A DNA stretch of 61,818 nucleotides, the filler included, from Bipalium vagum (Eukaryota): NCBI GenBank assembly GCA_037834085.1. It is 3 parts of 3 records of this genome, joined end to end, with 100 filler letters (N's around TTAATTAATTAA, not from the genome) between each part and the next. Parts side by side here need not be neighbours in the genome. Positions count along the whole stretch, not along the records: positions 27,969 to 43,586 come from JBBMKC010155493.1; 2 more parts are not named here. One strand, written 5' to 3'. Below the pieces are notes generated by a model. The model saw only the letters and a program-made list of their open reading frames with translations. It made no database searches and was not told the DNA's origin. Of this stretch, positions 22,732-55,400 are shown one piece after another. Each line of letters starts with the position of its first letter. Within the stretch, counting starts at the first letter, position 1. The position numbers and the translations under genes are program-made.

Positions 22732-23307
22732 TATTTAATTTTGATATTTTCATTCTGCAATAATTAACAAAAGTAGTTTTTTTAAAACACCTTGTATCTA
22801 ATTTTAAATATTGCCGTCAATTTTGTTTAAGCTATTTTTTTCTTTTTTTTTCCTTTTCTCCAAGTATGGTTAAATAATTCTATTGTGTAATATATATATA
22901 TATATATATATATTATTAATTGTATTAAGATTTATTACACAAATATATTAATATAAAGTACACATGCATCGTTTTATTTACTTATTATATTAAATATTAT
23001 TATATGTAAAGATAATTTGTTTCTGGTAGACACTGAATAATTTACGATCCATTGATGATATACTAAAGTTTAACTTATTCGCCTTTCACTAAATTCAATG
23101 CTTCAAGAAATCAATACATCACCATGACAGAAACGTCACAGACGACGGAATTAAATTAATAATCAATTTTCAAATAATTAATTTATATAATCTATTGGAA
23201 AAACACTACTATCCCTTGGAAAAAAAGTAATACACAAACAAACACATTTATTTCAAATTAGTTATGACACTGCGTTAATTTCCTGACACGCCCTCTTTTC
23301 CGTTATT

Positions 23308-26300
23308 TCAATCCTTGGCACCCTTCTTTCTGAAAATAAATTTAATCGATAAAAACGTCAAAATGAAAGAGTATAAAATCGCCAACAGTGCTGCCGGTAT
23401 AATCGAATTCTTGCCACTGAGAGGAACACAGAATCTGTTTTCGCTTTTCATCTTGCTCTGCATCTTGTTGACCCTTTTCATCTCCGAATCACCGATGGAG
23501 CTCGTGATCTTTGATTGTTCCTGGAGTTTTTTGAAGCGCTTTTCCGATTTGATTTTTCCCGATGTTTTACCATGGAAACGGTGACTCAACGACCGGAACG
23601 CTTCTTTCGGAGGCTGTGGCCGACCGAATTCATCGTGGTAATCCAGCTTGATGTCGGGCACGAAGTCCGACTTGTCCTGGAACGCAGTTTCCGGAACGGT
23701 GCGCCGTTCGCGTCGCGGACATTTCTGATCGATGTCATCATAACGAATTTTTTCCTCCTGGAAATTCTGAGCTCGGAGCATTTGATTTTTCGGATTAGTT
23801 ATGAGCTAAACGAAAAATATGATTCCTTAATCAATCCACCCATCTCCTTTGTTAAAACGTTAAACCATTAATCGCTTACCGATGCCGTCTTGTGCTCGTC
23901 CAGGTAACCCTTGTTCTTGGCCAACATCAAAGTGGTGAATATTCCTGAATTGATTTGGACCTCGTCGCCCAGAATTCCATCTGTCAACTTCAGCTTTTTC
24001 TTCGTCTGAGGCACCGGCACTGGAGCATCTCTGAAGTTCCGTTTCTTTTTCATTGGCTGCGGTGGCAAAGAAAGGATCTTCTCTTCTGGTTGCCATCCAC
24101 TGCTTTGGACTGTGATAAATAATAATGATCAATTTTTATTTCAAAATCCCAAACATAAATAATCAATAATTATTAAAATATCAATTATAAAAATATCTGA
24201 AAGAAATAAATAAAGCCAATATTAAATTGATTAAATAACTATTACAGATAAAGGTAAAATTTTTAAGAAAAAGCAAAAGGACAATAAAAATAAAAAATCA
24301 AAATCAAAATATTTTTAATATTTCCATTGCTTTATAAAATTTTATTTATATAATAAATTTTATTATATAAATGAAATTATTGAAAAACAGGAACATTACA
24401 TAATTTAAAAAACATTTTAAAAATTCAATAAGAAAATATATAAATTTAGATAATTATTAATATAAAATAAAAAACACTAAACAATTAAGATATACTAAGA
24501 TATTATATTAAATAAACTAAAGGTTTTTTTTTTAAAAATAATAAAACTAATGAGAAAATATTTAAAAATTGAAAAAAGATCGATATTAAAATGTGATTAT
24601 TAAAAAAAAGTTAAAATTCATTATAAATCATTAAGAAATCAATAAAACGACAGTGGTTTGCGTAATAAAAACGTTAAAAAAATTGAAATAAAAATTACTC
24701 GGTTCTTCTTCTTCTTTCACCTCTTCTTTCTTCGGAGGCGCCGTTGGTAATGGTCTAGCAATAGGTTCCTCTTTGATCTGAGCCGCGATTTCGGCGTCGT
24801 TTTTCCGTTTTGATTGCAAAATTCCATAAATTGATTTTGTGTATTCTTCAGTTTTTGTCAGAATGATCTTTCTACCATCGACCGCTGATGACGTCGTCGG
24901 TTCCGTTTTAACGTCCTCCATTGGACTGGACACGTCAATAACGGTGACGGTGCCAGACCCGTGATCAGGTGCTTTCGGCTTCGCTTTCTTCATCAAAGAC
25001 AATTGACGTTTCAGTTCCATGTTGACCACAGAGGATTCCAAATCGGCCATTACTAATGTCGGTCGATAACTGTCCTCATCGTCATCGTCGTCATCATCAC
25101 CAACACCGTTGGAAACGGTCGATGTTCCGGCTCGTTTAACGGATCTCTCGCGTTTTGTCTGGGTTTTCCTGCTAACCTCTTCTTCTGCCAACTCACCCTC
25201 TTCCGTTTTCGGTTTCACGGGCTCCTTCTTTTCTACCTCTTCCAGCTTCCCGATCGCGACCGGCTTGGCCGCGTTAGTACGGGTACCGCGTGCTTTTCGC
25301 TTCCGCATTTTTATTTTGTTGTTCATTTCTTCGGCAGTGAAATAATCGCTGGCCACTTTCACTTCATCACTGTACGAAAATCTCGTCTGAAATATATATT
25401 TAAATGAAAATAATGAATAAATAATGACTAAAGCCGATGGAACACGAAGATTTGGTTGAATCGGTAAAAAAATAAATTATTATTGACTTTTCAATTTAAA
25501 ATCAATAAATATATAATTAATTTTACTAATCATTTGGAGAATCAATAAAACTTAAGAAATATTTTAAAAAGAAAATCTAGAACTTTAAATAATGATTATT
25601 TTTACATTAATACTTTAAAAATTATTATAGAAAATATTTAATTAATCATTTATTTGACATTTAAATTGAAAAACGATAAAAATTAAAAAACATCCATCAT
25701 TATTGATTTTTAATAATTTCTTTAAAAAAATTTAAGAAAATTGAGATTCAAATTATTGAGGTGCCTCACTTTTCCGCTATAGAAACTTTCTCGTAGTTCC
25801 TGTTCCGCTTTTTCCTGGCCCATGTCGTACCGCCCTTTGGAGTCCAAAACAAATCGATTTTTCTTTACTCCATCTATCGATTCGTCATATTTTGCCAATA
25901 TATTTGTCTTCATCAGAGATAGGGGATCATCCTCGTCGTCTGAATCGATATATGCACTGTACGCTGTCATTTTGCGGTTACGGACGTTCCGTTCGGCCTT
26001 TTCATAATCAACCAGGTTAACATTGACCAAAACGTCACCATTTTCTTCGCCCAAAACATCTGCAAACAAAAAAATGTATATTTACTTAGATCGATAAAAG
26101 ACTCAAGTTAAAAGAAAAGTTGAAAGATCGATAGTTAAGAATTTTGATTTTTATCAGATATCAAAAAATGGTTACTTGAATCTTTTAATGTTAAAATTGT
26201 CGGTCCTGTCATTTCAAATCGGCTTGCTTTGTGTTCGATTGGAATGCCACATAAGTCTTTCGAACGATAACTGGGCAAGTCGTAAGATTCAACTTCCATT

Positions 26301-26846
26301 TGTTCATTGTTATCACTCGATTCATTGCCTTCCTCTTCTTTCTTCCGTTGTGATTCAATCTCAATTCTTTTGGCTTCAACTTTCTTCAAAAAATCCATTG
26401 TTGATTCCTTCTCATACTGAGACAAAGGCATTTCATTTGCCAACATTTCGTTTATCTCACGATTTTCTTTGTGACGTTTTAGTTTTTCTTCGAGCTTCTC
26501 TTTTGACTTGATGTCGCCAATATTCTTGGCAGGAGCATGAACAAAGTCATTTGCTTTAGGAGCTTCTGAAATCGTTTGTCAAGTTGAAAATGATTACCAA
26601 CTACAATTCATATTACCGGATATATTTTGATCTGATGTGTCACTGTTATTTAGTTCCAAAGGTTTCAAACCAAGCTGTAAACGAACTTTGCTAAAAACCA
26701 AAAATAAAAGCAACATTGAAAATATCCTATACTTTATTACTTTGTTTCTTCAATACTCAAAGAGGTTCCATCTCCTATTGGAATATAATTTCAATTAAAT
26801 ATTAAAATAATTATTTCTTACGAAAATCAGGATCTGAATTGGACAT
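23308..26846 (-). CDS. SART1: U4/U6.U5 tri-snRNP-associated protein 1 (SART1/Snu66), 9 predicted exons
   Basis: Predicted exons 26822-26846, 26741-26774, 26617-26690, 26176-26565, 25770-26059, 24699-25386, 23880-24109, 23387-23805 and 23308-23329, all GT-AG and frame-consistent. Motifs: HIND LSIEETNKVRLQLGLKPL, TILTLKD..VL, DVLVNVNL, ILAKYDE, VASDYFTAEEM, DEFGR..PKEAFRSLSHRFHGK.SGK.K.EKR. Confidence 0.93.
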
Positions 26847-27294: not shown

Positions 27295-27868
27295 TCAGGT
27301 TGTCAGGAAATGTATTGCTGTCCTTTAAGGAGCATTTTAGTCTTTTGCTTTTTGCAGAATGCCAAAATGAAATATAGTGGTGGAAATTTTTTTCTGATAC
27401 TAACTAAAAAAAATTTATTTCATAACATAAATATTAACTAATATCAAATCCTTGGAACTCAACCAAACAGTAATCAATACCTTCCATTGGTGCACATTGG
27501 GTTTCGGAAAGGGTTTAGGGGCCTCATGTCGATCAAACCACTGCGCAGTACGACGGCGATTGTCGTACATGATCCATTTCTCATCACATGTCACAATGCG
27601 ATCGTGGAAAGGATCAGTTTTGTTGCGTAAAAGAACTGCGGATGACACCTCAAAACGACATAATTTTGCTTTTCGGTTAAATTGTGCGGAATCCATTTCT
27701 CCAATTTTTTTGACTTTCCTATTTGGCGAAGACGTTTCGAAACAGTCATAGCTGAAACGCCTACCTTACGGCTAATTTCTCGAACAGTGGCACGTGGATC
27801 ACTCTCAACCAGTGCTTTCAAATCGTCATTGGAGATGGAAGATCTTCGCCCACGACCATCTTTATCTT
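27295..27868 (-). mobile_element. Mariner transposase remnant truncated by gap
   Basis: GRGRRSS, LKALVESDPRATVREIS, KWIPHNL, RIVTCDEKW and KVLITVW motifs; TIR-like TA-tcaggttgtcagg. Confidence 0.85.
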
Positions 27869-27968
27869 NNNNNNNNNNNNNNNNNNNNNNNNNNNNNNNN
27901 NNNNNNNNNNNNTTAATTAATTAANNNNNNNNNNNNNNNNNNNNNNNNNNNNNNNNNNNNNNNNNNNN
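27869..27968. other. Artificial scaffold linker N44-TTAATTAATTAA-N44
   Basis: Exactly 100 bp; the 12-mer puts stops in all six frames; identical structure at 43587-43686. Confidence 0.95.
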
Positions 27969-28040
27969 TTATTATTATTATTATTATTATTACTATTTAT
28001 ATTATTTTTTTGTTTTACTTATTAAAAAGCAAATTCCTAC

Positions 28041-30743
28041 TTTTGATGTTTCAGATTTGGTTTCTTGTATATTATAATTTGTTGGATTGAAATGCACATT
28101 AGGTGTACCATACCACAAATTATTGACAGGGGAGTACATAACATCTGACCATCTATTATCATTTCCATAGATTTTTTCCACATTTTGTCCCATTCCAATT
28201 TCAGAATGATTATATTCTCCTCTTTCATTTTGCAACTTAACGGACCTTCGTTTCACAAACATAAGAAATATAAATAAACCCAACAGAACAACTCCTCCCA
28301 TAGTTACCATTGCAATTACAATCACAATTCGAAACTGATCATCAGTAAAGTTCATGCCCGCTCGGAAAGCCGATCTGGAAGAAACGAAGAGTCTTATTTT
28401 TATTTCAGTAGATAAATTTGGTTCACCATTATCATTGGCAACCAGTTTAATTACATAATTTCCTTCTCCAATTCTGTGACGGGTTCTTATTTCTCCGCTT
28501 TGTGAATCAATATAAACAAAATCATTACCTTCGGTTACATGATATGTAATATTTGCATTTTGTAAAGAATCTAAATCAATTGACTGCGCAATGATTATTC
28601 TTTGGTCTGGTGCTAGAACACTTGATGTATTTATATTAGAAGAATCGGGAGTAGGATGAACCCATTTAGGAGAGTTGTCATTCATGTCCAGAACCCTTAA
28701 AGTGATGGCCTCAATTGTAGTGAGTTTCGGCTTACCTTGATCACAGATCATGATGAAAAGCGTATATAGTTCTATATATTCTCTATCCAGAGACTTGTGT
28801 AAGGAAATATTGCCCGTATTTTCATCAATAGAAAAAATATTCGTAAAATTGTTACTGATATCACCAGACTGGACAAAAGAGAGAGATTTACCTATTATTT
28901 TTTGAATGTAAAATTTAACAGTTCCGTTTTCACCTAAATCCTCATCTTTTGCTTGTAACTGTGTAAGTAATTTTGGAAGCTTGCTTTCATTTTCCATCAC
29001 TTCCAATCTTGGAGGATTGACAATAGAAGGCGCATTATCGTTTATGTCCGTTATTGTAATAATGACTGTAGCCGAAGCAGTTTTTATTCTAGGTTCACCT
29101 GGATCAACTGCAAGAACAATAATTTCAATTTTATCCTTTTGTTCTCTATCTAAGCCTTTTGCGGTACGTAAATACCCCAGTACAGGATCTATTATAAAGT
29201 ATGCTTCTGATTTTGGAGCGATCTCATATATTAGTTGAGCCGTTATATCCTCATCTGTAGCTTGCAGTTGAAGCAGAATTACACCGTTTGTGGTATTCTC
29301 GGATATTTCAACAAAGTACTGTGACTTTTTGAATTTTGGTGAATATTCATTTATGTCTTGGATTTTAACTGTGATCTCTTCTTCGGTTGTTAATTTTGGG
29401 ATCCCTCTGTCAGAACAGAACATTCTTACTTGGAAATGGCTTTCTACTTCTCTATCGAACACTCTTTTCGGTTGTAATGTATATATATCACGACCTTTAA
29501 CAGTTTGAGAGTTTGATAGTTTAAAGCTGTCGGCTCCTACGGTCAAATTACAGTCAACTTCAGCGTTAATACCAATGTCACCATCCGACACCCAAATGAT
29601 TGCAAAATGCGACATGGATGTTTGATTTTCTTTCACATTGAATTCCTTTTTATTGGGATCCAGTGAATTAATATTGATTATTGGTCTTTGGTTATTTACA
29701 TCTTTTAAGTGAACATAGACAATTGTGTATCCTACTTTTGGCACATTCCCACCATCCGAAGCTTCAATGTTCAATGAAAAATCTTGAGCGATATTCTTGC
29801 AATTGAGTATTCTTTGTAACTTAATTTCTCCGGTATAAGTACTGATATAAAAGTATGATAATACAGATGGGTCTTGAACCTGACCAAAACGGTATCGTAC
29901 CTGGCCAAACAGTCCCGAATCCAAATCGACCGCTGTTACGTTGGCAACCACTTCACCAACCATGGTATTTTCCATTATTGTTACTACATATTCCTTTTGC
30001 AAAAAGACAGGATAATTGTCATTTATATCTAAAACGGAAATGGCCAAAGTTTGATTACCACATAACGGTGGAGATCCACAGTCGCACGCTATTAATGTGG
30101 TTTTGTAATTTATTTGAGTTTCATAATCAAGAGCACTTGTGACATTAAGGTAAAGAAGACTTGCAAATGTTATATTAAAAGTATCGTTAAATCCATGCAT
30201 GAAATATGTACAGACATTGTTTGGTTCAACGTCAGGGTCGGATGCTGTTCTCAATGATATTCGATAGCCTATCTGAACGGCTTCACTGATCTGCACTTGG
30301 TAATAAGATTCTGCAAATTTCGGTTGGTGATCATTAACATCTTGAATGGTTATGATAACGTTAATCCAATGATCGGGCTGTACGCAAACGGTCAGTTCAA
30401 TTTGACAGCGATCCAAAGCTGTGAAACTGGTGGGACATATTTGTTCTCTGTCAATTCTTTGAGCAATAAACAATTTTCCAGTACTTTCTTCCAGAGAAAA
30501 GTATTTCAACAATTTCCCATCATCATAAAGCTTAAATGTTGATTGGGGTTGGATCTTAATCATATTGGTATCGAGATTTAAGTTGCCAATAAAATTTCCA
30601 ATTTCCGTTTCCTCTTTGACAGCGTAAAGAATATTTCTTATGACATCATTGCCAAGCAAACGTTTACATTGACTTTGCATTAAGAAAACAATTATTATCA
30701 AAACTATCCAACAGTTCCAAGAAACGGTCTTTTTCAGATTCAT
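28041..30743 (-). CDS. Protocadherin (7 EC repeats, delta-type-like), large first coding exon
   Basis: Signal peptide, seven cadherin repeats (DxNDxxP, LDYE/LDRE and AxDxG motifs; EC1 DREQIC...C), TM IVIVIAMVTMGGVVLLGLFIFLMFV, then KRR. Probable phase-0 donor SETSK|gtagga at 28041; unspliced, the ORF runs to a stop at 28002. Confidence 0.93.
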
Positions 30744-33700
30744 TTTTCCGATTTAAATTAATAATTTTTAACACCTTTGTGTAGCATAATAGGAGAAATT
30801 GAACAATAAAATTTACAATCATTTCCCATATATAATCTCGATGGGAGCCAATGGAATCGTTCCTCTTTCTTTATTGAATCAAGGATTTGACAGAAACTTT
30901 TTCATTGAAATTGGATAAGAATCATTTCTTTCTGCAATGATATTTTGGTTCTTCGGATTTCCAGGTCCCTATAATGGTCTAGATACCAGTGGAGAAAAGA
31001 TTCCGTCTTCTGTGGTTCTGTCAATAAAAATTGAGGCATTCATTCAATAGTAAAATGAGAGATTTGCGTCTCTGATTGATCCGTCTTCTTGAAGAGTGTG
31101 ATAGAAACGATGAAGATCCAAAATTAATTTCTTTTTTACTTCATTTTTTTATTTTATTTTAAAAAATCTCTAAATATAAAATAATATTTATAAATATAAT
31201 GTTTTGTCAATCTAAAATGTGACTGACATTAAAAGAAAAGAAAGATAAGAAAAAGTATTTTTGTAACATCAGATTTCTTGGAGAAATTAAACTTATAAAT
31301 TTTTTATTATTGTAAAATTTTAAATAATAAAGTAAAACTGGTTCAAGGAGATTATTTTCCAGAAAATATAAATAAGAAAAAAGAGAGAAAGAATTATAGA
31401 AGAAAAAGTGTTTAATGAAGAAATCAAATAGTCTCTTACCTGAAAAGATGGGCTTATTAAATTGTATAGATGATTTTTAAGAAATCTGACGCATTTAGAT
31501 TAACCCCATTATATTTTTCCAATAGCAATAGAACCTACAATTTTTGAAATATTTGATTTTAAGTCAAATTTATTCCAATACTTTTCTCTGGTAATATGGT
31601 GTCAAGTTTTGCTTCTAAGTTATAGAGTAAATGTAATTTTCAATTTTTAAAAAACTCTGGTGTAAAAGAATGACACGTGACTGACAGGCCCACTGATTGG
31701 AAAATTTTCTTAAATCATATTTTTATTGATAATTAATTTGTTTGATGAATTGGACAAAAATTGCAATGCGTTTTCTGCAAAATAGAAAAATCGAAGATGA
31801 TCAATGGCACAGTCTTTTAGTCTTCTGGATCTATGTTGTATAGCTGCCAAAATAATGTGAAAAGAATTATTTCCCGATTAAAATACCGCCAAAAGTAATT
31901 TAAGTCTGAGGAAAAATTAGGCATTTGTCTAATATCTGCGTTGCGCAATTTATGAAAATATTACAAATAGATCTGCTAAAATGGATCTTGATAACCAGTT
32001 TGTTGAAAATAATGCGAAAGCGGTGGCAGCATTGTCCATCATTAAAAGATTGACCCTCTAAACAAATTTTCGACACTTGTGGAAAAAAAAACCTGCAGTG
32101 AACATTCGGAGAAAGTTGTAATAAGCGAAAATTGAAAAGATAAAGTTTTACCTAAATTTACTTTTCTTTATAAAGATATTTATATTTTATGATTAGCACA
32201 ATAAATGACCCAAACAATATACATAAATGTGACTGAGTCAAAAACTTTTTATTTTACCTAACATATTTATATATTCTTTTACTTGAGAATTTAACGACTT
32301 AAAGTGTCAAGGTAGGTGTAAGGGAAGCATGGAAAATGTGATTTATGTCTTTATTAATATTTATATTTTTGCAATGATATCTATACTGAAATAGAATTTT
32401 TTCTTTGTATGTATAGGACCTATAGAGAAGCTCTAAACTATGTGCATCACAAAGTTATCTTTTCTCGGTATATAAGCCGATATATGAATTATAAGAGAAA
32501 TAAGTAATTAGAAAATATAGTTTGTGTGACCTATTTTATCTCCCGGTATGTAAGCCGATTTAGGAATAATACGAGAAATAAGTTACCTTATACATATTTA
32601 TATGAAAATATAAATTATAGGAATTATATTTATTGTACAGCTACACACTTGACTTTATACATATTTTGTTGTAATTAAATTCGATGAACATTTTAAAAAT
32701 TTGAACAGAAACATTACCCATATCAATTAAGAATCATAATTATTATGGCTACTATTATTGTTAGTGCAGTCGTTATTGTTGATGCTATCGTCTGTTGTTG
32801 TTATTACTATTACTTTTATATTTTATATCATGCATAAACCCTTATTACTAAACATTAACTCTTATTATCTTTATATTTCTGATTGTATTGTGTATAAATC
32901 TTTCTTCTCTTTCCGTTATTCTTTCTCTCTTCTCCGATGCCTTCTCTCATGTAATAAACATTCAAGACATACCAGACGATCGGAAACTGCACATCAAATA
33001 AATACAATGAAAATCAATAACTGCACCTAAATTATATTAATAAGTACATATTTCGATCAAATTAGTACTTGTTTTCATGAGAACTTTACATCTTCAAACA
33101 GCATTTGGTTTCGAGAAGAAATCGTCTTCAGAATATATCTACCTCTCAATCCATTTTTGACATCTTACCTTTTTTTGTTGAAAGGTCCCATGCTGCGTTG
33201 ATTAAGAGATTACAATGACTTGGTAATATGTCTTGCGGATTTAGAGATTGAGGTATGATTACCTAATTTTTGGATATTTTAAAAGAATGAAAATTATACT
33301 ATGGATCAGCTAATCAGGTTGATTAAAGACAAATTTGATTTTCAAATTTCGAGAACACATGTTATTCTTAAGATTTAAAATATTTAAATAAAATTCGTTG
33401 TTAACAAAAAAAGTGATAATTTCCTTTTCAAATATATTGTAAAGACTTTTTATTGCATTATATCTGACCATTAACCATCTTTCAGCTAGCAATCCATATT
33501 CCTCGAATAAAACTCCTATTTTGAAGTGATAACTGTCGTAATGCACTTTCAATCCTCTCCTCTACCTTACGTGATAAGTTACTCAAAATGTGCTACAGAG
33601 ACCAGAAACGAGTGAAAATAAGTAATTTCTGCAGAATGATATTTTTTGCTAGCTAGTACTGGGCATGTCTCTATGACTTTTAAACAAGACAATTAAGCAA

Positions 33701-34824: not shown

Positions 34825-35280
34825 TTATATATGTTTTTCTTTGACATCATTGCGTATATTCTTATTCTTATTATTCCTATTTTTGTTATTACATTTACTC
34901 TTATTCTTATTTCTATCTTTATTATTTTTAATATTATTATTTTTATTAATTTTACTTAGTGAAGATTGACCCGTATTGCTTGAATCTTGATTATTTAAAG
35001 TTAAATTAGGTTGTTTCTGATTAAAACTGCTGTCCCTCCTGAGTGGGGGGTCGACAATTTTAGCTGCAGAAGCATAGCTCATTTTAATTTGGTTTTTGGG
35101 GCTTGATCCCGGAAAACTAGTTTTTATGATCGGAATACCGTTAGGTTTCAATCTTTGATTCAAAGAATATGTGTCGATATTATTTAATTGAGGAAAAGGG
35201 GGAGATGGAAAGTTAGGGTTGAAGAAAGGTATCACATTTATGAGCCTGGGAAGATCACAAAAGTCAGTTACTGAAGACAC
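34825..35280 (-). mobile_element. Possible decayed retroelement ORF1/gag-like fragment
   Basis: Low-complexity ORF with SYASAAK, a motif common in non-LTR ORF1 proteins, plus an N/K-rich tail; no RT motifs recognised downstream. Confidence 0.25.
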
Positions 35281-36699
35281 GAGCGTTTCAATATCTGTCG
35301 TTATTAATTTCTATGCAGAAATGAGGAAAAATGTGAGATTTTTTCTTGAAAATTATGTTCAAATAAAACTAAAAGTTTTAATAAAGTCTACAAAGACATT
35401 TCAGTTATTATAATACGAATTTATAATTTCTAGTCAAACACATTTTTGTAAAACTGCAACCTTGTTTATTTTTAACCCGTGGAGTCATTGTGTTGAATTT
35501 GTGATAGTTAACAGAGCTAGTCTAACTCTTACATCATTAACCAAACACTCATTTTGACAAGAGACATCTAAATCCTACATAAGAATTAAGTTTTACCAGG
35601 TAGCTTTTTTCCTCAAAAAATGAGGAAAAAAATATTTTTAATATTGTTAATATTGCAAAAATTTTAGTTAATTATTTATTTTTTTGTCAATATGTGATTA
35701 TTAATGTTATAGGCTCAAAATCTAACAAGGATGATTAGTCGTTAACTATCATTTGTTCAAGTTTAGGTGTCAAGTGAGTGTGAGGCTTAAGAGCACATTG
35801 GTTTTTTTTCTTATTTAGCTTGATTTTCTTTATTGTTTTAGCGCTTTTGATACCCACAACGATGGTACACAGAGTTGTCTGCTACCTGTTTGACTTAATT
35901 GTAAACTCAGGTCTTTATATTTCGTATAATTTTTTCTGGCTTCTTAAAATTTATTTTTATATATGATTCTTTTGTATCAAACAAATAAATTTTTATTACT
36001 GATATCTCTTACAAGTAATTCTAGAAGATTTTTTTAATTTCTATAGGTTTTAGATCTTTCTATATTTAATGTAAATCTTTTAAGAATCTGTCGAAAATGT
36101 CAATGATTCTTTTCACAGATTCCTTTAATAATTACTTACACTTATTGGATTTAGATGAGTTCCACTTTGTCGTAATCTATTATTGATAGTTTTATTGCCA
36201 AAATTCTCATTTGACACTTCAAGTTTGCTAATTAACTTTTACATTTTCGGTCTTCCTTAACAAATATAATAAAAGATACTGATTGGCTGTCATGAACTTT
36301 TTGAGTTTTCATATTAACCAATTAATTTATACATTGCAGATTAAATTATTTGAAGAAAATAATTTATACATCTATGCTACTTGTAGAAGGGCTCGTTTAT
36401 ATATTATTGAGGAATATTTCTGTCCCAATCCATTCTAGTAAAGTTAAATGCGATCATTTTGAAAATAATTGAATTTTCTTTATCTGTGTTGATTCTCGTA
36501 CAAAAATATATACCACATTCAACACTTTCTTTTGTACTCAAGTATAAATTTATAAATACTAAGGGTATGCAAAATTCACATCACCGATGTACATGTAGAA
36601 GTAAGTCAATATTGATTATTTTTATAGCATTAATTTGATAATTAACTTTGTAAGGATTAAATTTTAATTAATATTAAATAAAAATGCATTACCAATTTA

Positions 36700-37862
36700 T
36701 ATGCAGAAATTACAATAGAATTACATAAAATGCATATACGCAAATGCATGGTTTTTTGTTTAATCAGATCAAAACATCAGCCGAAGCAACTGGAATTATT
36801 TGCAATACATATGGTGATGGAGCAGTAGTCGTTTCGACCTTTCAAAATCCGTGATTTTGATTTGGATGATAAAGAACGCCATATGCGACCATAAGAGATG
36901 AGTTAGGATGACTTGTGTGAGATAAATTGAAAATTAGTCTGAGGATGTAGCTCAGCGGTCAGAGCAGTCCATGCGCATGTGAAGGTCCCGGGTTAGAATT
37001 TTCAACTAACAACTTGGAAGCACTTTTTGAAAGAGAACTCAATCGATTGTAGAATTGGCAGGAAGGTTACATGTTAATCAGAGCATCATAATCAGTTTGG
37101 AAAAATTCATAAAGGAAAATGAGTTCATCATGACTTATCCGAAGACATAACCAGCCGACTCACCAATTGTCTTTCGCTTCTCAACAAACAAAGGTCTTTC
37201 TTGCATCAAATTGTGATCAGAGACGAAAAGTTAATATATATAATATTATTCAAATTCCAATCGCAAAGGATCATGCTTAAATCCTAGAGAACCAAGCACA
37301 TCACAGCCGAAACGAAATATTCATAGTCAGAAAGCTCTTCTTTGTATCTGGTGGGACATGCACGGAGTTCTTTATTATGAACTGTTAAAACTATCAGAAA
37401 CTGTTACTGCGGGATTTTACAGACGCCAATTGAAGTAGTTTGAAGAAAAATTAATTGAAAAACAGTCATATTAAACGACCAAACAGAACAATGTAATTAT
37501 TCTGCAGCACAATACCAGATTCGTGTTGAATTAAGAACCCGTGAAATATTGATGGAATTAAAATGGAAAGTTCTATTACATTCGGCTTATTCTCCAGATG
37601 TCGCCCCGTCAGATTTTCACCTGTTTCGTTCCATGCAGCACAGTGTTGGATACACGATTCTGGAATATTGAAGAGGTACGAAAATTCATCGACAACTTCA
37701 TTCAATCCAAGAACAAAGACTTTTTTAATCGGGGTATCCATCTTTACCTGAAAGATGGGGAAAATGCAAATAATGACGGAAAATATTTTGAATGAAAATA
37801 CTGTGTATATTAATAAAAATTATTTGTCTTAAGACTATTTGAATTTATGCATACCCATAATA
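36700..37862 (+). mobile_element. Inactivated mariner (DD34D) element hosting a 96-bp insertion
   Basis: MHIRKCM, NTYGDGAV, IVIRDEK, KALLCIWWDMHGVLYYELLK, AYSPDVAPSDFHLFRSMQH and NDGKYFE* motifs; TIR-like end at about 37841-37862. Confidence 0.9.
36916..37011 (+). mobile_element. 96-bp TG...CA insertion with tRNA-derived core (candidate TRIM solo LTR)
   Basis: Flanked by ACTTG duplication (36911-15 and 37012-16); ends TGTGAG...CTAACA. A-box TAGCTCAGCGG (36948-58), D-stem GCTC/GAGC, degenerate B-box GGTTAGAATT (36991-37000). Removing it restores the host mariner reading DDLEAL. Confidence 0.7.
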
Positions 37863-39959
37863 CTTAGATCTCATAAATTTTTTAAAAACTGATGCATGTT
37901 CATGCGCATATGACCAGGAAGAAATTCCTTAAATAAATGATCGTCAGACATATTTTCAAATATATCTTAAATACCCTAAATTGCTTGGTGCATAATTTCC
38001 AGTTGAAATAAACCAATTATTTTCAAGTCCTAAAGATAATAATTGTATATCTTTGTGTATTAGTACAATTAAAGTTTAGGATCATTCTGTGATTTGTAAA
38101 AGAAATTATCGGCTTAAAAAAGATTTTTTTTCGACTTTGATCTTATAAATAAATGAAAAATAAAAAATAAAACCATTTCTCACCAGAACATAAAAATCAA
38201 TTTCATTTTTTCAATAAATAATCGAAAATAATGTTCATTTATCAAAGATGGTCTCTATTTTGAAAAAATTGAGAAAATTATTAAAAAAAAATTATTATCT
38301 TAAAATTTGATACCTTTATATTTTAATGTAATGTTGTCTAGCATTTTCTTTTTTAACGATAGAAACTCGTCATTTAACGTAATTAGACTTTCCTAATTGC
38401 AACACCACGATGTACAATGATTATAAGCTCATCGTCCTAGGACATTCCTATGTTGAAGATTTCCATGTCAAATTACTACACAAATTCACTGACAATGTCG
38501 TAATTGTAATGAACTTCATTTTCTTATGAGTTGACGTAGAAAAAAAATAATGAAGAGACATTTATTGTACGGAAAGAAATATCGAGCCTCGAATTTCAGT
38601 TTATATACGTTTTTATCAGATATCATTTTAATTACTCAAAATTTAATCTGAAAAGGTTGTCACTCTTGTCCACTGTAAAATAAGCCTTAAAGTGACTTAA
38701 CGAAATGATTTAGATGTTCGACAGTGAAAATGTAATTGATAATAATCTTAATTCCATTAGACTGAAAATACAAATCAACGATTAATTATCAATATTTGTT
38801 CTCTTCATTAAAACAAACTTTTGCTTTAAATTGTCAATTTTAAAGTGTATTTTTCAGAAATTACTGTCAGAAATATTTCAAAAATAAAATATAAATTCTG
38901 AATATGCTCATATTGTTCTGGGTTATATTAAATGATAAAAATAAATTAATTAATTATATACTGTTAAATTATTTATATTTATTTACTGGTTAAAAGATTT
39001 AATATTTTTCCATTAATTTCGACAGAAAGAACATTGACTCAAATATTGATGAAAATGTGGTTATGGTGAAACAACTACTGTACGAAGATATCACGTTTTC
39101 CATCAGAAGAATTTCTGTTCTTACTAATCTCGATTTTTAATAATGTTTTAACTACTACTTCCGAAGTCTCCACAATACTGTTGACTGCATCATTTCAAAC
39201 CACTGAATTATTATTTATACCCTAAATAAAGATGAATCAATATAATTTCGACTTTATTTATTTTTCTATATTAAGCTATGAAATGCTACTCAATCATAAA
39301 ATATACAAAATATTTTATTTAAAAATAAAGCACAAAAATTTGCCAGAGAACAAATCCAATTTTAACTAACACTCATTTTGGCTTCTTTCATCCGTAGTTG
39401 ATAGTCTAAGTTTACATAAGTTGTCTGATCCGCCCACGTTTTGATGAATAAAGTTTTCGCAATTATTTTTTGAAAGCCTGATTTTTATTGTTTACCTTAT
39501 AGATCTTGTCCGATTTCTTTGTCCCCCCCACTTGATTATCGTTTATGGTTTGATCTTCATTCTGGGGTTTTTCAATGTCGGTTGTATATGGAATATATAT
39601 TTTAAATATTTAAAATTAATGTAAAGTTAATTGGTTTCTCAGGAGATTTGCATGTTAAGATCTTAATATTGTGGTATTTAAATCCAAAACTATCTTGTAC
39701 TTATCTTATTTCATAAATATTTAATCTAAGAGATAACTTTTTGCATTGTATCTTATGATAAGGTTAATTTACAAAAGAAATTAGCAAGAAACTCACATTA
39801 AGTAAATTAAACACAAAATTCAAAGAAAATATTGTCGCGTATTAATTAATTTTTAATTTCTTAATTTAATTAAATTTATGCATTTCCGATATCTAAATGA
39901 ACTTTGGTAGTTAAACTAATTTACGATTTACTTGATTTTTGAAAATCTTAATTTCACTA

Positions 39960-45982: not shown

Positions 45983-46377
45983 CATAGTTTAAAATCTTAT
46001 TACTGATTTAAAATAATTTAAATAATAATAATAAAATCAATGAAAAACAAATAAAAGTCAATGTACCTCTTGAATCAATGGACTGAGAAGACATTGTAGA
46101 ATGTTTATCTGAAAATAATGACCCATTGATTAAAAATAATTTTTGTTAAGTCTATAACTTGGGACACCTTTCATATATTCCAGCTCTTTCCAAATGTCAT
46201 CATTTGAAGTGGAAAGTCGATAATCTTGGTCAGTTGGAATGGTCAGTTGACTTTTTTCTGTTGATTGAAAAGTAATTTTCTCATTAAAAATTTTTATTAA
46301 TTTACTTTTTCTATCTATCGATTCCGTAGCATATCCAATATCAATATCAGGTCTAGTAATCACTTTTTGAGAAATTT
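44083..46377 (-). CDS. ANK: Ankyrin linker region: array of 11 symmetric phase-1 mini-exons
   Basis: Predicted exons 46306-46377 (72 nt), 46168-46257 (90; alternative donor gives 99), 46067-46108 (42), 45878-45946 (69), 45636-45707 (72), 45473-45565 (93), 45305-45373 (69), 45124-45225 (102), 44486-44545 (60), 44258-44353 (96), 44083-44145 (63). All are AG/GT-bounded, multiples of 3, stop-free in the frame set by the SDSEDEG exon, and acidic S/T/D/I-rich. Confidence 0.7.
44187..45795 (-). promoter_or_regulatory. Intronic UGC/YGCY clusters (candidate MBNL-type splicing elements)
   Basis: Plus-strand agcagcagca 44187-96, agcgcagcagca 44588-99, gcgtagcagca 45018-28, agcattagc 45421-29, agcaggagcagca 45751-63 and tgcagcagtcgca 45784-96, in otherwise extremely AT-rich introns. 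Confidence 0.5.
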
Positions 46378-46493
46378 CTATCGAAAAAATAAGAAAAATA
46401 TAAAGGCACAACATTTATCATTGGACAACATAAGAAATGAAGAGAAGAAAAGAAAAAAATGATCGGATGGTTTTCTGTTCAGAATTAATTTAC

Positions 46494-49400
46494 CTCCTTC
46501 GTCTTCACTATCAGACACAGCATGTTCTCCCATATTTTCCGGTTTTTCCAAAATAATTATCTCTTCAGTTTCTTCTTCTTCAATTTCCCAACTTATAACT
46601 TCCGTAGTGACCTTTCGTAAAACTTCAAAAATATTCAAATAATGCTGTTTTCGAGCAATGTGAGCAGCAGTCCATCCTTGCTATAAAAACCATAAATATT
46701 TCACATTTAACAATAAAAGTCCATTATAGCTTATTGCAAACAAAACTCATACATTATTCTTAATATTGGGATTGGCACTATTCTCAAGAAGCAGATTGAC
46801 CAATTGCAAGTGACCTTGTTGAGCAGCCAAATGTAAAGGAGTAAATCCGAGTTGAGTTTTCCTATTTATTTCCTCTTGAGTCATTAGACTAATCAAATAT
46901 TTTGCCATGTTCACTTGTCCAAAATGTGCAGCCGTGTGTAAAGGAGTATACTCGGCAGTAGTTGTTGGTAATATATCGGCTTTTTCTGCTACCAAAATTT
47001 TAGCAACACCAACACGATCTTCTTGAGCAGCCAGGTGCATGGAAGTCAATCCGTTCTGAAGTAAATATCGAATTTTATTTTTTAAAATTATTTTACCATA
47101 TTTTTTGACCATTATAAAATCCTTTAGCATAAAAATTTTAATGAAAATATATATCTATACAGGGTGTTCCATTTGAATCCGAACTCCACAAAACATTATT
47201 TGTATAGAACCTGTATTTTAAAGGTAAACTAATGTTTTCAATTGTTCATGATCATTTTCCTATGCTATATGTTATCGTTTAGAAAAATTGTAAATTGATG
47301 TGATCAAGTAATATTGATTTTATTAATAATTTTGCACCTAAACTTTTCGAAGTATTTCAACACTACATTATGTAAATTAAAATATTTACTAATCTAACAT
47401 GAAATATTATAGAAAGAAATACAATCTAAAATTTCATTAAAAATTACATTTTTGTAAATAAATTTAGACTCTTATCTGATATTCCATAACATTTAATTCT
47501 TTTTACAGATAATTGATCTGTAATTAATTAATCCAATTAAAATCGAAACCTCAATATAAAGAAAAGACCTCTTATCATCTATTGGTCTCCGAATTCAGAA
47601 TCTTAATTAAGAAAAATATTATTAAATACACTGTACAATTTATAATAATTTTGACATTTTCATAAATAAAGTGCAATAAAATTCATTTTATTTCGAATAT
47701 GTTAAGCTGTAACAATATCGGACTACGAATAGTATATTTTAAAATACTAATTTTTATCAGTGTCAATATTTTCAAACTATTATATTCGGTTTGTTTTTTA
47801 TACAATTATTAATAATTAATTATTAATTATTATAATTAAAATTCATTTCAGAATATCAGAAGAATTATATAACATTTATTTATAAAAAAAAACGGAAAAA
47901 TTGAAAATGATATATAGAGAAAATGACTACATAGGAATATTTTTTTTCTTTATTAGCAGAAAAAATATTGATTAATATTTTAATATTAAAAATAAAAGAA
48001 TCAATATTTAAAAACTGATCGTTTTAAAGTTTCAAGCCATGTGTGTTATTTGAGTTGTGATGTGAGTTAGTTTGACTTTCTGTTAGTTCCGAGATTATTG
48101 ACATTACTAATCATAAACAGATATCGATCACATAGAATCATCGTAAAATTAAACAAAAAATAATGATTATCAAACCAATTTAATCGCTTCCTATAATTTG
48201 GTTGTAATATATAAAAGCTTTAAAAATCCATGATCATTTTATGTTCATACAGATGAAAAAATATAATTGATAACTAACTTCAATTAAAATACACGACCAA
48301 AAGCAAAAATGAAAATTTAAAATTATAAATATATATTACTTTAGCTTTGTGATTGACATTCGCTTTATTTTGCAATAATAACGAAACCATATCTGAGTGG
48401 CCTTCTTGGCTCGCCAGTTGTAACGGAGAGAAACCGTTTCGTGATTCAGCATTACTGTCAGCATCGGCATCCAAGAGCATTGCTGCCAAATTTTGATTAT
48501 TCTTTTTGGCAGCGATGTGCAACGGGGTATAACCGTTTTTGGCCTAAATATTTCATACAATTCAATAATCCTGCCATAATAATAACATTATGTAAACTAA
48601 AAAATTGATTTAATTTTGAATAAGAAACCTATCGTTTCATAAACCTGATAAAAGAACGTTTTAATACAACAAAATAATAAAAAAAAAATTTCTTTTAAAT
48701 GATATACAAAATCAAATTGAAATTATTTTCACATTCCTTAATTTCACATTTCATGTACTCCAATCCTTTACCATGGAAAAATTAAGTAAACAGGGAATTT
48801 CCAAAGAATAATAATGATCAAAATATTGATTTGTCTGATAACACAAACGAAAGTGATTCAAAGCCGACGTATACATTGATATGCACAATAAATCTAAGAC
48901 AACAAATATCATTTATTTAATCCATCCACTGTCAACGACTATCATATTATTTTGATATGGTTTTAATATTTTCATTCTCATATCTGAAGCACTTTTGAAG
49001 TTTTCAATATTGAAGACAACGTGAGTTGATAATTGTTATAAATATTATGAAACTATATAACAATAATAAACAGAGTTCTAATAACATTATGGAATTTAAA
49101 AGTTAGTCACTATTTTAAAGAATATCGATTTATTGTAATTAGCACAAATAAAATATCAAATTCATGAATAAATAAATATAAATAATATTTTATTTATATT
49201 CATAAATTTTCATTTACTAAAAACTTTTCAATTTATTGACACTACTGTTACAAATTTATTATTTTATTATTTATTATATATTAGTTACACAGTAAAAAAA
49301 CCATAAAACGTGATAAATGAATATTTTCACTTTAATCAGGTGAAAAGATAACAATCTCTATCAAAATTTCTTCTTAAACTTATTGAATAGAATTAATCTC

Positions 49401-52400
49401 TGATTTGATTGGTAATATCGAAGCAAAGTCAATATTTTTAAAAAACTTAAGAAACTTTATTTTATAAAAAATTTCAAAATCGAAATTCTAAATAATTAAG
49501 GTTTCTCTCGCTTAAATTTAGTAAACCCCGAGTTTATTTATAATTTTGTCATAGTAACGGTGTTTTTTGGTTAACAATAAATCATAAAAATGAAATATGC
49601 ACTTAAATTTCTTTATTATAATTCAAGACCGATATTCATAAATAATAAAAAACATTTTTAATAACTATAATAATAATCGTTGAAATTTTCATTAAAAATT
49701 TTGTTGATTATGTTTTAAAAATTATTTCTACTTATTTAAAGTGGTTTAGTTACCTTGCATTTTGGATCTGCTTTATTTTCCAAAAGTAATTTGGCTACCT
49801 TTTCATGATTATAATGAGTTGCCACATGTAAAGGAGTCAGTCCATTTTTCCCAGTAGCATTCGGATTAGCATTATTTTTTAATAGTGACTTAGCTGCACC
49901 AACCTTGTCATACTTTGCAGCAATGTGCAAAGGCGTAAATCCTCTCTAAAAACAAAAAAAATAATAAATACTTTCAAATGCCGTAACAATATTTACCTTT
50001 GTTTCTGCTTCTATTTTGGCTCCATTTTCTAACAATAAGCTGATTGCTTCATTTCGACCTTCTTTGGCAGCTACATGCAATGCCGTATAATTATCTCGTG
50101 TTGCAACATTCGGGTCAGCCCCAACTTGTAAGAACAATGTAATCAGTTCCAAATTGCCTATTTTTGTAGCAACATGTAATGGCGTTTGGTTTTCCTGAAA
50201 TACCATTGAGGACTTATACTTGCATGTTTTGAAAGTTTATGTAATGAATAAAATTGTTTTAGTTTAATATTTCAACCTTTTTTGATAATTTAAGATTTCA
50301 CAGGATTTAGAAAATGTAAAAATTATCTACCTTTTTTCTCAAAAACATGAAATTATATAAATTAATTTATGAAAACTCTAGTTTTGAAAATGAAGTATTT
50401 TCATTTTTTTAATGAGAAAATTGTTTCTCTCAACAATTAGCAGGAAATTTAATATTAAAAATATCCAATTACATTACATTATTGGTTTAAAAATAATGAG
50501 CTTTTTGTTTTTTATGTTAAAAAATTTATTTCATTTAAAAACTGATTACTAAATTCTTTCTTATTAAATAAATATTTATTCTATATTAATAGATATGTTA
50601 AAACAAATTAATTTCAAATTTTTTTGAATACTGTTTTTAATAATTCAAAGTGTTTTTTTCAAAATCTTAGGATATGAATATATAAGATTTATGATAATTC
50701 AATAATAGTATTTATGAAAAGAAGAAAATGATCAAAATTAGTATTAAAACCATCACCTAACAGGTATTTTTTGACTAATTTTCACTAATATAGAAATGTA
50801 ATAATGTATTTCTATTTTATGTCTAATATATAAAAATTATATTAAAACTGAAATTTTATTATTGAAATCTGAATTTCATAAATTTAATGTACTAAAAAAT
50901 TTGTTAAATAAAGATTATATATTATTATATATTATAAAGATTATATCGAAACCAAAGTTAATATGGCCTTCCATTAATTAAATTATATTATCATGTTATG
51001 TGAAATAATTAAAAATATTACATACTAATTACAGATAGTTCATAACAATTTAATATTTGTTCTAAAAAGGTAAATATTTTGTGAATTTGTTGCAAATAAA
51101 GAAAAATTATTAAAATAAAATGTGAAAATTGGTAATATTCAGTAACAAGAAAAATTCAAATGCAACAAGCAGAACCAAACCAGAAAATCAATAGTCATAT
51201 ATCTGTTGCACGTATCTCTCAATTAAATAAATGTCAAATTGGTTTATTGCATCACTTGAATTTCAAAAACATGTTTTTATGGAATTTATTAATCAAAATA
51301 TAATAATAAACAATATTATTTTTAGAGTCTCCGATGTGTTTGGTTGAACTTTTACATTCTACAGAATAGATGAGAAACTTAAAGATTGTTTTAGATTAGT
51401 AAATAACACAAAAAGGATTATTAAGATATATGTGATAAATCAGACTAAACACTCGGCATATCTGTAATTATATAATCGCGACACCCAATGAGGTAATATC
51501 TTTATCCCAAAATCATTTTACGACACATAATTATTATGTAAGCAGAAAATAGTTAAAATAAAATATGGATTAAATGTATGTGATCATATTTTAATGTTAT
51601 ATTTATTTGTCATTTTAAATTAACAATTATTATTGCTCATTAGCATTATAATAAATAGATACACAATTACACTCGCATATATTTTGAGAAAATAATAATT
51701 TGTATTTCAAATAAAAATGAAAATTTATTTATAAATAAATTTAATTGATCAATAATTTATGTAAATGATAAAAACAAGCTTCATTTAATATCTTCTAGAA
51801 ATTAAGGCCCTGATTTTTAATATATTTATATATAATAAAATAATAGTTTTCTGAATTTTTAAATTTTCTCTAATTTCATGAAATCGTTTTTTAGGTAGAC
51901 AGTTTTATACATAAATTGATTAAACATATAAATCAATACAATTCAAAAATATAACTATTGATTATAATTATATTTGACTTTAACAAAATTTTTAAAATAT
52001 AATAGAAAATACAATGAAGATAACAAGTCTTTTATCAAAATATTGTTTTAATAATTATTATTTTATATAGTATATTCAAAAATATTTTAACGAACATTAG
52101 TGAAAATACACAAGTTCATCATATATATATTTACAAGAATTCCATGAGAAATTTTAATTTACCAATATATTAATGAGATTTTAACATCCAAAGAAGTAAC
52201 AAAATTATTTTAACTAAAATAAATCCTGTTTCTGTTTATAAGAGGACTTAAAAATTACACAAAATGTTCTTATCCTCAATTTATAAGAAAAGTAACATGA
52301 ATTTTATTTTTTTAACATAAAGTAATCAAGTTAAAAAGCTGGACCAATTTGATATATTTCATTTATATTTTCGCAAATTTTCTTTTATCCGATGATGAAA

Positions 52401-55400
52401 ATATAAGTAATATGTAATCAAAATTACTCGTGCTTTAGCGTTTGGTAGAGCTCCACTTTTCAATAAAAGTTTCACAGTTTCTGTTTGATTATTTCTCGTT
52501 GCTAAATGTAAAGCAGTTTCACCTCTCATTGTTCCTTGCTCAATATTTGCTCCTTTTTGCAAAAGCATGTTTACCGCTTCTTTAGATCCAATAAAAGCCG
52601 ATACGTGCAATGGCGTCAAGCCGGTCTGAAATGAAAAATCCATTATATTATACTAATTAAGAACAATAAATCAGACAATTTTCAAATATTTTTTAGAAGT
52701 TTTATTTGAAATAAAATAAAAATTCATTTCGAAATATTAAATTTCATCACTTTTTCATAAATCAACAGTATAATTTGTAAATGCATTAATGAAAAAACGA
52801 TGACATTTTCCCAGTTGAATTAGAAACACAATCATTTATTTTATAAAAATATGCAATTTTTCAAAACTAAATATTTATCAATAATGGATTTTAGTTGACA
52901 CATGAGTGTAAATCGAATCAACAAATAATTATTTAATTAATGTAAAGTAGACGAATATTTAACAAATAATATATAAAATAAACATTTATTGTAATGAAAG
53001 AAACATTATTAAATTAATATTATTATATACAATACTTCATTATAATATTGATGAATATTATTTAGACAAAAAAACTAAAATTAAGTTTTCTGTACCAATA
53101 ATTAAAAATACCCACATTGAATAATTATCTTAACAGAAGCTAAGCTCTCATCAAAACTAAACTTTTAGATTTAATAAATAAAAAATATACGACATTATAG
53201 AAACTTTAAAAATAAAATTTAGAAAAAAATAAAAATTAAAAAAAATTGCAAAATTGAATATCTGTACTTCTATTACTTGAATATACAATGTATCAATAAC
53301 AATATTTTTATTATTACACAGTTTGTATTATTAATATTAAAATTCTGAAAAAAATATTTAAACACTGAATTATTATTAAATTCACGTATCAAAAGTAACA
53401 ATATTATATTATCTATTATTAATAACAGGAAATCAATGAGATTGTTATAATTAAAACACTTCAACAATATTTAAATATTAAAAAAATATATGTACATAAA
53501 TATACAATAAATACTGAATATTGGTTCATTATGATTCAATGACTTAAAGTTAAATGAATTGATTATAATTCTTGTCAACAGACTTAATAAGAAAATATAA
53601 CAAGAAACTAAAATCAAAATTAATTTTAGAAAATTATAAAATGAAATCGAAAGTCAAATTTTCAGTTTTCTTAGAAATAACTTTCTAATGAGAAGGCCAT
53701 CCTATAAAAAAGCATTCTTATAATAAATTAAAACAGATCCAAATAAAATGACATTTCATAAATATAATTTTATTTTGTATCCTGTGGCTACAAAGACTAG
53801 AAACAATGTCAAAGATAGTGAAGAGTCCATTATAACTACTGTATTGGTATGTATGTGCTTACATCAGGAAACAGTTATCCGAGATGTCTTCTATTAAAAC
53901 AATAGAACCCATAGAATAAAGAAATGCAAAGTAATAGCATCAGCTATCTGAAATCTGATATTTTTTGTATTAAAAGAGTTTTTATTAATTATTTTACATT
54001 TTATTATCCGAAAATTTTTATTAGGACATTTGTCCATAAAACAAGTAAAATATTTTAAATAATCTACAAATTTCTTACTTAACTAAATATTAAATAAAAG
54101 TTAGGAAAATCCATAATAAATTAACTATTTTGAATGAAAAAAAAACTAAATTTCATTAGACTTTATATCCATAAACTGAATTTTCTAATTTTTGTTTTAC
54201 TCATATTTTCAATATTAATATATTTCTGGTGGTCTGAGAGTAGAAATAACCAAAACCATTTATTATTTAAGATTCCAATTGTAATAGTAATAAGTTTTAA
54301 AATTTATACAAATTCTTGATTCAAGAAATGCATTCTTTTTACTTTATTAGTTGAACAAGGATTTTTAAAAATTTTTTTCGACACATTAATATAAAAGAAA
54401 ATACATAATTTTGGCAATTAAGTATATTTAGAATGATCTCAATTTATATGTAAAAATTAATTACAAACTATCAATGTTTATTCTTAAATGATGAAAAATC
54501 GAAAATTTTTGCATAAAATAAAAAAGAATAAACTCCATTGAATTTTAATATATTCACTGTCAAGGTATTCCAAAAATCATTGAAGAGTATCAAAATCTAA
54601 ATTCTTAATGTTACAAAGGCTATTTGAAATCCTCTACATTAAAAGGTAAAAATAAACAGAAATTCCAAAAATTATTTTTGGTGACAGGAAATATAAAGTA
54701 ATTAGATGTCAAATCAGGAATATTAAAAGAATATGTCAAATAGTTGATTGATTTTTCATGAGTTACTTTTTCATGAGAATTCTATTAAACTATTCTTTTA
54801 AAATATATGAATTACAACATGACCAAATTTTGCTACTAAAAAAAACAATTTTTTATAATAATTTCACATTAATCATTTCACAGATCCAAATAATTAAATA
54901 CTTTATCAATATTGATAAGGTCATAGATATTTTTTATGACCTTTTTGAGTACTGAGGTTACAGAAATCGTATTTTTTATTAAATCTTACGCTATGAAGTA
55001 TTCACAAATTTTACTTAAACGGCCATGTATAATGGAATTCATTAAGGCTCGGGAACACACAATTTAGTGTGAATTTCATTGTATGTAGTTCGACGATCTC
55101 CTAAAATATTTCTGCGAATGATAACATTTTCACCAATAAAAAATCGATGATAAAAAGATATCACATTTGAGCTCATCAATTAATCAATAAATTGTAGTTT
55201 TCAATGGTGCTTTATCACAACCAATTTTTAACAATTCAGACATTGTTTTTGTCTTGACCAAGTTTGAAATATAATTAGTCAAAATTTTTTCTTTGTTATA
55301 TTTATTTTTTGTGCTTTCTGTCTTTCTTAAATTGAATAGATTATTTTAAAAAACATGTATATGAAAAATTGTCTTTGTATGGCCATCATATATTTACTAG

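Follow-up and report, generated by a model that had tools for sequence, protein, structure and literature searches.

A 96-bp insertion in a dead mariner transposase gene: a deleted copy of a high-copy tRNA-bearing repeat, likely the solo LTR of a Helenus-like TRIM

Introduction

In the stretch of DNA analysed here (61,818 nucleotides, filler included; hereafter the window), the transposase gene of a mariner element is interrupted by a short segment with TG...CA ends. This raises the question of what kind of mobile element the segment represents. The first-pass annotation had proposed a miniature solo LTR with a Pol III promoter, from a very small family of TRIMs bearing tRNA-like sequence.

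Such elements have a precedent in Helenus (TRIMp3), which comprises TRIMs with tRNA-like LTRs of 104-323 bp; solo LTRs are common, about 2-20 LTRs being present per internal part, and in the fungal examples the tRNA-like part is followed by a T-rich stretch between TG...CA ends (Kojima, 2024; PMC10886601). In the available part of that description, TSDs measure 5 bp in fungi and in the one plant, and 4 bp in every animal family for which a value is given, two others being n.d. The choice of Helenus as the appropriate comparison and the 4-bp TSDs that the first-pass annotation had given for animal copies both agree with this source. No flatworm appears in Table 1 or in the supplement of the Helenus paper, and flatworm terms have no matches in the supplement as available (PMC10886601). 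A flatworm TRIM is known from taeniid cestodes: ta-TRIM, as far as the accessible text goes, has TSDs of 5 bp in Taenia (eight of eight) and of 4 bp in Echinococcus (PMC4558846). Further literature for comparison, likewise available in part, concerns planarian tRNAs (PMC7962491) and TRIMs of sugar beet (PMC13570524). A literature search, outside whose scope lay most subscription papers, Repbase and Dfam, yielded no description of the family treated here.

Results

The insert lies between two copies of ACTTG (Table 1), which at offset 101 form a direct repeat of exactly 5 bp that allows no extension; the coordinates and this repeat agree with the earlier statement of a 96-bp copy with TG...CA ends and a 5-bp TSD. 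The end signature alone is weak evidence and not beyond chance: TG...CA plus a 5-bp repeat at a length of 96 bp occurs at 2 of 60,650 window positions, including the insert itself, and lengths of 80-120 bp give 25 matches in the window. It is because of the transposase alignment and the read data that the insertion is accepted as real. The left flank translates as ...DKERHMRP*EMS*DDL and the right flank as LEALF.... Across the site, P0128, the closest of four intact transposases found (72% to the query piece; it reads KERSGRPQEMKSDNLEALL), has EMKSDNLEALL and aligns with the mariner flanks in a gapless manner. In this protein alignment the flanks thus abut with one common Leu codon, leaving exactly 101 bp extra. 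The protein alignment was used for the empty site because none of the joints in contigs placed on 36700-37250 showed the empty mariner site directly. The insertion of 96 bp and an extra ACTTG into a dead mariner transposase gene is real, and the exact insertion into a mariner ORF with ACTTG duplicated, as first described, is borne out.

The sole further 96-bp TG...CA segment with a 5-bp repeat in the window is located at 10953-11048 on the minus strand. An A-box-like motif without a B box is found nearby at 11193 (minus strand); neither has similarity to the element, and both are taken as chance.

A search for sequencing runs listed five, none of them an RNA run. Contigs of four, X1-X4, were placed on 36700-37250, that is on element and mariner together, at 80% likeness; the fifth run, X5, had a small share. 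X1 (2,661 contigs) accounts for 0.81 of the words sampled; as the window itself may come from this run, it is not independent support. Summed X1 depth, which gives an order of magnitude and not a copy number, is 2-3 x 10^5 over the element versus about 30-1,550 over the mariner flanks, and the eight single X1 contigs listed have depths of 15-30. The element is probably present in thousands of copies in X1. At least 283 X1 contigs leave the element into unrelated flanks at 36916, at least 47 at 36915 and at least 50 at 36918 (agreement 0.43-0.44), the 47 that extend by one base being about what is expected for a chance G. Among the loose-end rows listed (24 rows; 361 further rows) this sets a floor of at least 380 junction contigs, and a single-copy sequence is not what we are dealing with: the element is a dispersed high-copy repeat with a sharp common 5' boundary. 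The TG...CA ends are present in the window copy, and the 5' boundary is alike in at least 283 contigs. At the 3' end two other single-locus contigs align to 37012, and the last letter of the loose-end majority line, reached by few contigs, conflicts with the penultimate C of the window.

A second element start in the same orientation was seen in 2 of the 2,661 X1 contigs (joint 36983 -> 36916). Neither PBS, PPT, internal region nor a clear two-LTR copy was seen in the contigs placed on 36700-37250, and no second copy of the element is present inside the window. In the two runs from organism B (X2 and X3) the mariner is covered and the element is uncovered at 80% likeness, the missing cover being no evidence of absence. 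A short degenerate motif had no matches in metagenome contigs and none in viral contigs. As regards the mariner itself, contigs from organisms B and C (X2-X4) match its family at roughly 85-90% likeness, and one mariner family is thus common to three organisms.

The anatomy of the window copy largely follows the first description. The ends are near-inverted, the terminal bases being inverted-complementary at 3 of 3, 5 of 6 and 8 of 12 positions; no perfect inner inverted repeat is longer than the 9-bp pair at 36927-36935 / 36997-37005; an A-box-like and a B-box-like motif start at 36948 and 36991, 43 nt apart; and the 3' end carries neither a poly-A tail nor a simple repeat. A run of four T is located at 36999-37002, and the GC content is 44% in the element versus 27% in the window.

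What the first-pass annotation had read as a tRNA-like gene with its 3' T-stem and acceptor strand replaced turns out differently. Seventy-one X1 contigs run on past 36999 with 19 letters that are absent here and then rejoin the last bases of the window copy (agreement 0.79). By eye, these 19 letters supply the 3' strand of the T-stem, then the acceptor strand and finally the first bases of the 3' arm. Since other copies carry both strands, their loss is a 19-bp internal deletion in this one copy, and the family unit measures about 115 bp with a complete tRNA-like body. The length of 96 bp is consequently damage specific to this copy and not the size of the family. Intact B box, T-stem and acceptor strand are present in other copies (by eye, X1 contigs). 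In the family, 36927-36939 can be paired by eye with the 13 bases behind the acceptor strand, with one G-U, so that the stem is extended across the T run. The window copy departs from the majority sequence of the family at 36940, 36942 and 36969 and seems one base short near 36983, and its B box has lost the invariant C. With the B box damaged, this copy probably has no working Pol III promoter, contrary to what had been suggested, and judged by its sequence it is probably silent.

The origin of the core was also considered. ARAGORN reports no tRNA gene in the window, and a comparison of 36400-37500 with Rfam at E<=1 yields no tRNA; the sole Rfam match is a chance snoRNA outside the element (E 0.4). 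Without a call from either program, the tRNA-Ala label depends on inspection for a set of features, namely the 5' end, the G3-U70 pair and CGC at the anticodon position, which we take to be those of tRNA-Ala. Of the earlier claim of a tRNA-Ala-like core, the A- and B-box-like motifs stand, and the Ala label is by eye. A functional dispersed tRNA gene is ruled out for the window copy, the acceptor strand being missing and the B box damaged; for the family as a whole such a function is doubtful, given that the anticodon arm of the tRNA-like core appears by eye to pair poorly.

A related family occurs in organism C, represented by X4, where summed depth over the element core reaches 2.5 x 10^6. 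The features of this family were read from separate, unphased majority lines. Loose ends in X4, among them 81 contigs before 36928 in the rows listed, show by eye identical first six bases and nearly the same 5' arm, with a leader that is longer by about 12 nt; the spacer between the first six bases and the arm differs between the X1 and the X4 family. The acceptor stem carries a two-sided change from G4-C69 to T4-A69 and keeps G3-U70.

Table 1. Coordinates of the inserted element, its parts and its host in the window
Feature	Position	Strand	Remarks
Dead mariner (host), imperfect TIRs of about 30 bp, transposase gene full of stops and frameshifts	36553..37866	+	
Left TSD copy, ACTTG	36911..36915	+	Lies in mariner codons D-D-L
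TG...CA insert of 96 bp, likely a solo LTR; lacks an internal piece of the family unit (about 115 bp)	36916..37011	+	
Leader upstream of the tRNA-like part, predicted U3	36916..36940	+	283 listed contigs start at 36916, flank agreement 0.43
5' arm of the inverted pair extending the acceptor stem	36927..36939	+	13 bp in the family, 9 bp paired here; family pairing by eye
tRNA-like core, probably from tRNA-Ala by eye	36941..36999	+	A-box-like motif 36948-36958; damaged B-box-like motif 36991-36999
Remnant of the 3' arm, four-T run (possible Pol III terminator) and terminal CA; predicted U5	36997..37011	+	
Site of the 19-bp deletion (3' T-stem strand, acceptor strand, start of 3' arm)	36999..37000	+	Bounded by 3-bp microhomology
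Right TSD copy, 5 bp	37012..37016	+	Direct repeat and transposase alignment

The genes of the window bear on the identity of the host. An intronless protocadherin gene of about 900 aa (28002-30752, minus strand) has one close relative (79%) in the protein collection. After this relative, the best named BLASTP matches by score are from Cichlidogyrus and Schistosoma. In a quick tree of 26 rows hand-picked from 120 listed matches, plus the query, the protein groups with Cichlidogyrus and Schistosoma (SH-aLRT 100) on long branches. Judged by these sequence affinities, the host of the element is a probable flatworm.

Further features of the window are noted for completeness. A second decayed mariner transposase (27415-27920, minus strand) adjoins the protocadherin gene and spans an assembly gap. 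Exons of a SART1 (U4/U6.U5 tri-snRNP) gene are present at 23300-26600 and several ankyrin-repeat exons, by eye of an ankyrin gene, at 46100-56700, all on the minus strand. Neither a search with the SART1 exons nor one in the ESM Atlas gave a placement of the host. An open frame of 161 aa with a low-complexity tail (34825-35310, minus strand) resembles by eye a fragment of a retroelement ORF1. A pair of 41-bp inverted repeats (3429-3469 / 4175-4215, 95%) directly precedes a Tc1-like transposase fragment at 4280-4828, and the region 3429-4828 is possibly a MITE or Tc1 remnant.

Discussion

An insertion with its target duplication, a multi-copy family with a fixed 5' end, a deletion particular to one copy and a related family in a second organism form the observed basis on which any reading of this locus is built. 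The family starts at a fixed point about 25 nt upstream of the 5' end of the tRNA-like part. Pol III initiates close to the tRNA end, and the leader, which a SINE transcript would lack, could not be regained by target-primed reverse transcription; the U3 region of an LTR is restored during LTR replication. The fixed leader must therefore derive either from an RNA with two copies of the unit or from mobilisation at the DNA level. An enzyme of the integrase type is indicated by the combination of TG...CA ends, a duplication of 5 bp and terminal bases that are conserved. The 96-bp insert, which has lost part of a high-copy repeat unit of about 115 bp, is in our view likely the solo LTR of a Helenus-like tRNA-bearing TRIM with a predicted Pol III promoter, and we prefer this reading because it is the simplest known arrangement with all these features.

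The parent element would have consisted of two such LTRs flanking a short spacer with PBS and PPT. Transcribed by Pol III, it would yield an RNA that begins at the tRNA start of the 5' LTR and ends at the T run of the 3' LTR, with the leader serving as U3, the tRNA-like part as R and the last 12-15 nt as U5. An autonomous LTR retrotransposon, with Gypsy or BEL as candidates, may reverse-transcribe this RNA and integrate the product with a 5-bp stagger, and recombination between the LTRs would then reduce the parent to a single LTR. The copy described here subsequently lost 19 bp by microhomology deletion and has probably fallen silent.

The X4 family fits this proposal in that the first six bases and a near-identical arm are kept by eye while the spacer differs, as expected for an integrase attachment end. 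The two X1 contigs that go back to the element start are compatible with two-LTR copies; chance neighbours or tandem copies would look alike. Several points run counter to a TRIM. No PBS or PPT came to light in the contigs placed on 36700-37250, and at the 3' end the loose-end majority line conflicts with the penultimate C of the window. The majority flank before 36916 is not purine-tract-like, a weak objection because internal regions common to many copies would be collapsed into a small number of contigs. A single site provides the TSD length, and animal Helenus elements with an entry all have 4 bp. Finally, inverted arms of such length suit a MITE better than an LTR.

Among known systems, the element shares with Helenus its non-coding nature, the TG...CA ends (both seen in the window copy), the tRNA-like sequence with A and B boxes, a short TSD (5 bp, one site) and many lone copies, and the unit of about 115 bp falls inside the Helenus LTR range; it is thus not unusually small, and the earlier idea of a very small LTR has to be given up (PMC10886601). 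In contrast to animal Helenus, the TSD at our single site is 5 bp instead of 4 bp, a length within the 4-6 bp expected of Helenus (TRIMp3) at large, and the available part of the Helenus paper describes no acceptor stem lengthened by a 13-bp inverted pair (PMC10886601). Helenus also has a two-LTR form with PBS and PPT, whereas the present element is known from single-LTR-like units, the likeness being one of layout. By analogy, the functional layout appears Helenus-like, and the element is a candidate member of Helenus. Ajax and Cassandra likewise carry a small-RNA promoter within the LTR, and Ajax is an animal TRIM with 5-bp TSDs; as far as the source is available, however, their LTRs contain 5S rRNA sequence and not tRNA (PMC10886601). 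The flatworm ta-TRIM resembles the element in its many solo LTRs and, in Taenia, its 5-bp TSDs, but no tRNA-like LTR or Pol III promoter appears in the accessible text, in which the term 'polymerase III' has no occurrences (PMC4558846).

Movement as DNA would require a different history, in which a MITE mobilised by an integrase-like transposase of the Ginger2/TDD type had captured a tRNA gene as its core. This would also account for the fixed leader. The family unit is nearly a hairpin, with 5 of 6 terminal bases and a 13-bp subterminal pair inverted; the junction contigs are dominated by lone copies, and MITEs typically reach very high copy numbers. Ginger2/TDD elements share the TGT...ACA termini, those of Ginger (TGTNR) being as in Gypsy, and TDD-4/5 have 5-bp TSDs (PMC2836005). 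On the other hand, in the part of that source at hand, they possess a transposase gene, no tRNA core and long TIRs, published lengths being 40-297 bp for Ginger and 45 bp or more for autonomous Ginger2/TDD families versus 5 of 6 and 8 of 12 terminal bases plus subterminal 13-bp arms here, and metazoan Ginger has 4-bp TSDs and targets CCGG or RTATAY, neither of which ACTTG fits (PMC2836005). The inverted arms of our element, moreover, lie inward of the termini, and how far inward is not the same in organism A as in organism C. The A and B boxes kept in two organisms would go unexplained by DNA mobilisation, and no tRNA-like Pol III MITE family emerged from the literature search, as judged by title or abstract start. 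We regard a captured tRNA gene in a MITE as unlikely.

A bolder proposal, which we hold to be decidedly unlikely, is that a lineage of Pol III mini-retroelements arose independently in flatworms, with thousands of copies in at least two species, and that its 13-bp arms act as an LTR-selective termination switch. In the 5' LTR, the transcript would start from the tRNA without the upstream arm and continue past the four T; on reaching the 3' LTR, Pol III would also copy the upstream arm, and the stem, now extended up to the T run, would bring it to a halt. In its boldest form, the 115-bp unit would replicate from dimers without any internal region. Considered apart from the switch, it is quite improbable that the solo form itself is mobile as a single-unit retroelement lacking an internal region, with head-to-tail dimers or circles of the 115-bp unit providing the U3-R-U5 template. 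The dominance of lone copies and the two same-orientation joints, which could be tandem dimers, speak for it, and several Helenus families are known only as LTRs with the internal part given as n.d., tandem arrays being reported for LTR-11_DR (PMC10886601, as available). Ordinary LTR-LTR recombination, however, accounts for lone copies with TSDs (PMC10886601). There is no known priming site for a single-unit route, and no dimer sequence was seen in the contigs placed on 36700-37250.

A short tRNA-derived SINE is highly improbable, as the first-pass annotation had also held. The great number of copies would suit it, as would the tRNA-like core with its A and B boxes, and the end signature arises by chance at the frequency given above. 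SINE2 elements, however, begin at the tRNA start, whereas the common 5' boundary here is placed about 25 nt upstream of it and a second organism retains its first six bases; the 3' end of the window copy has no tail or simple repeat, and TSDs made by LINEs are usually longer and variable.

Returning to the solo LTR of a tRNA-bearing TRIM, the element is on this reading a real, high-copy representative of a known kind in a host phylum that is probably new to that kind, and a new mechanism class is not indicated on present evidence. Its variant features compared with animal Helenus are the 5-bp TSD, observed at one site, and the extended stem. If the reading holds, a probable flatworm lineage would be added to a class described only in 2024, with an integrase signature of 5 bp that differs from the animal families and a copy number that is seemingly high for the class, and predictions of tRNA-Ala genes in the genome would be inflated. 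The extended stem offers a testable idea on a problem common to these elements, namely how Pol III can pass the T run in the first LTR and yet stop at the same run in the second.
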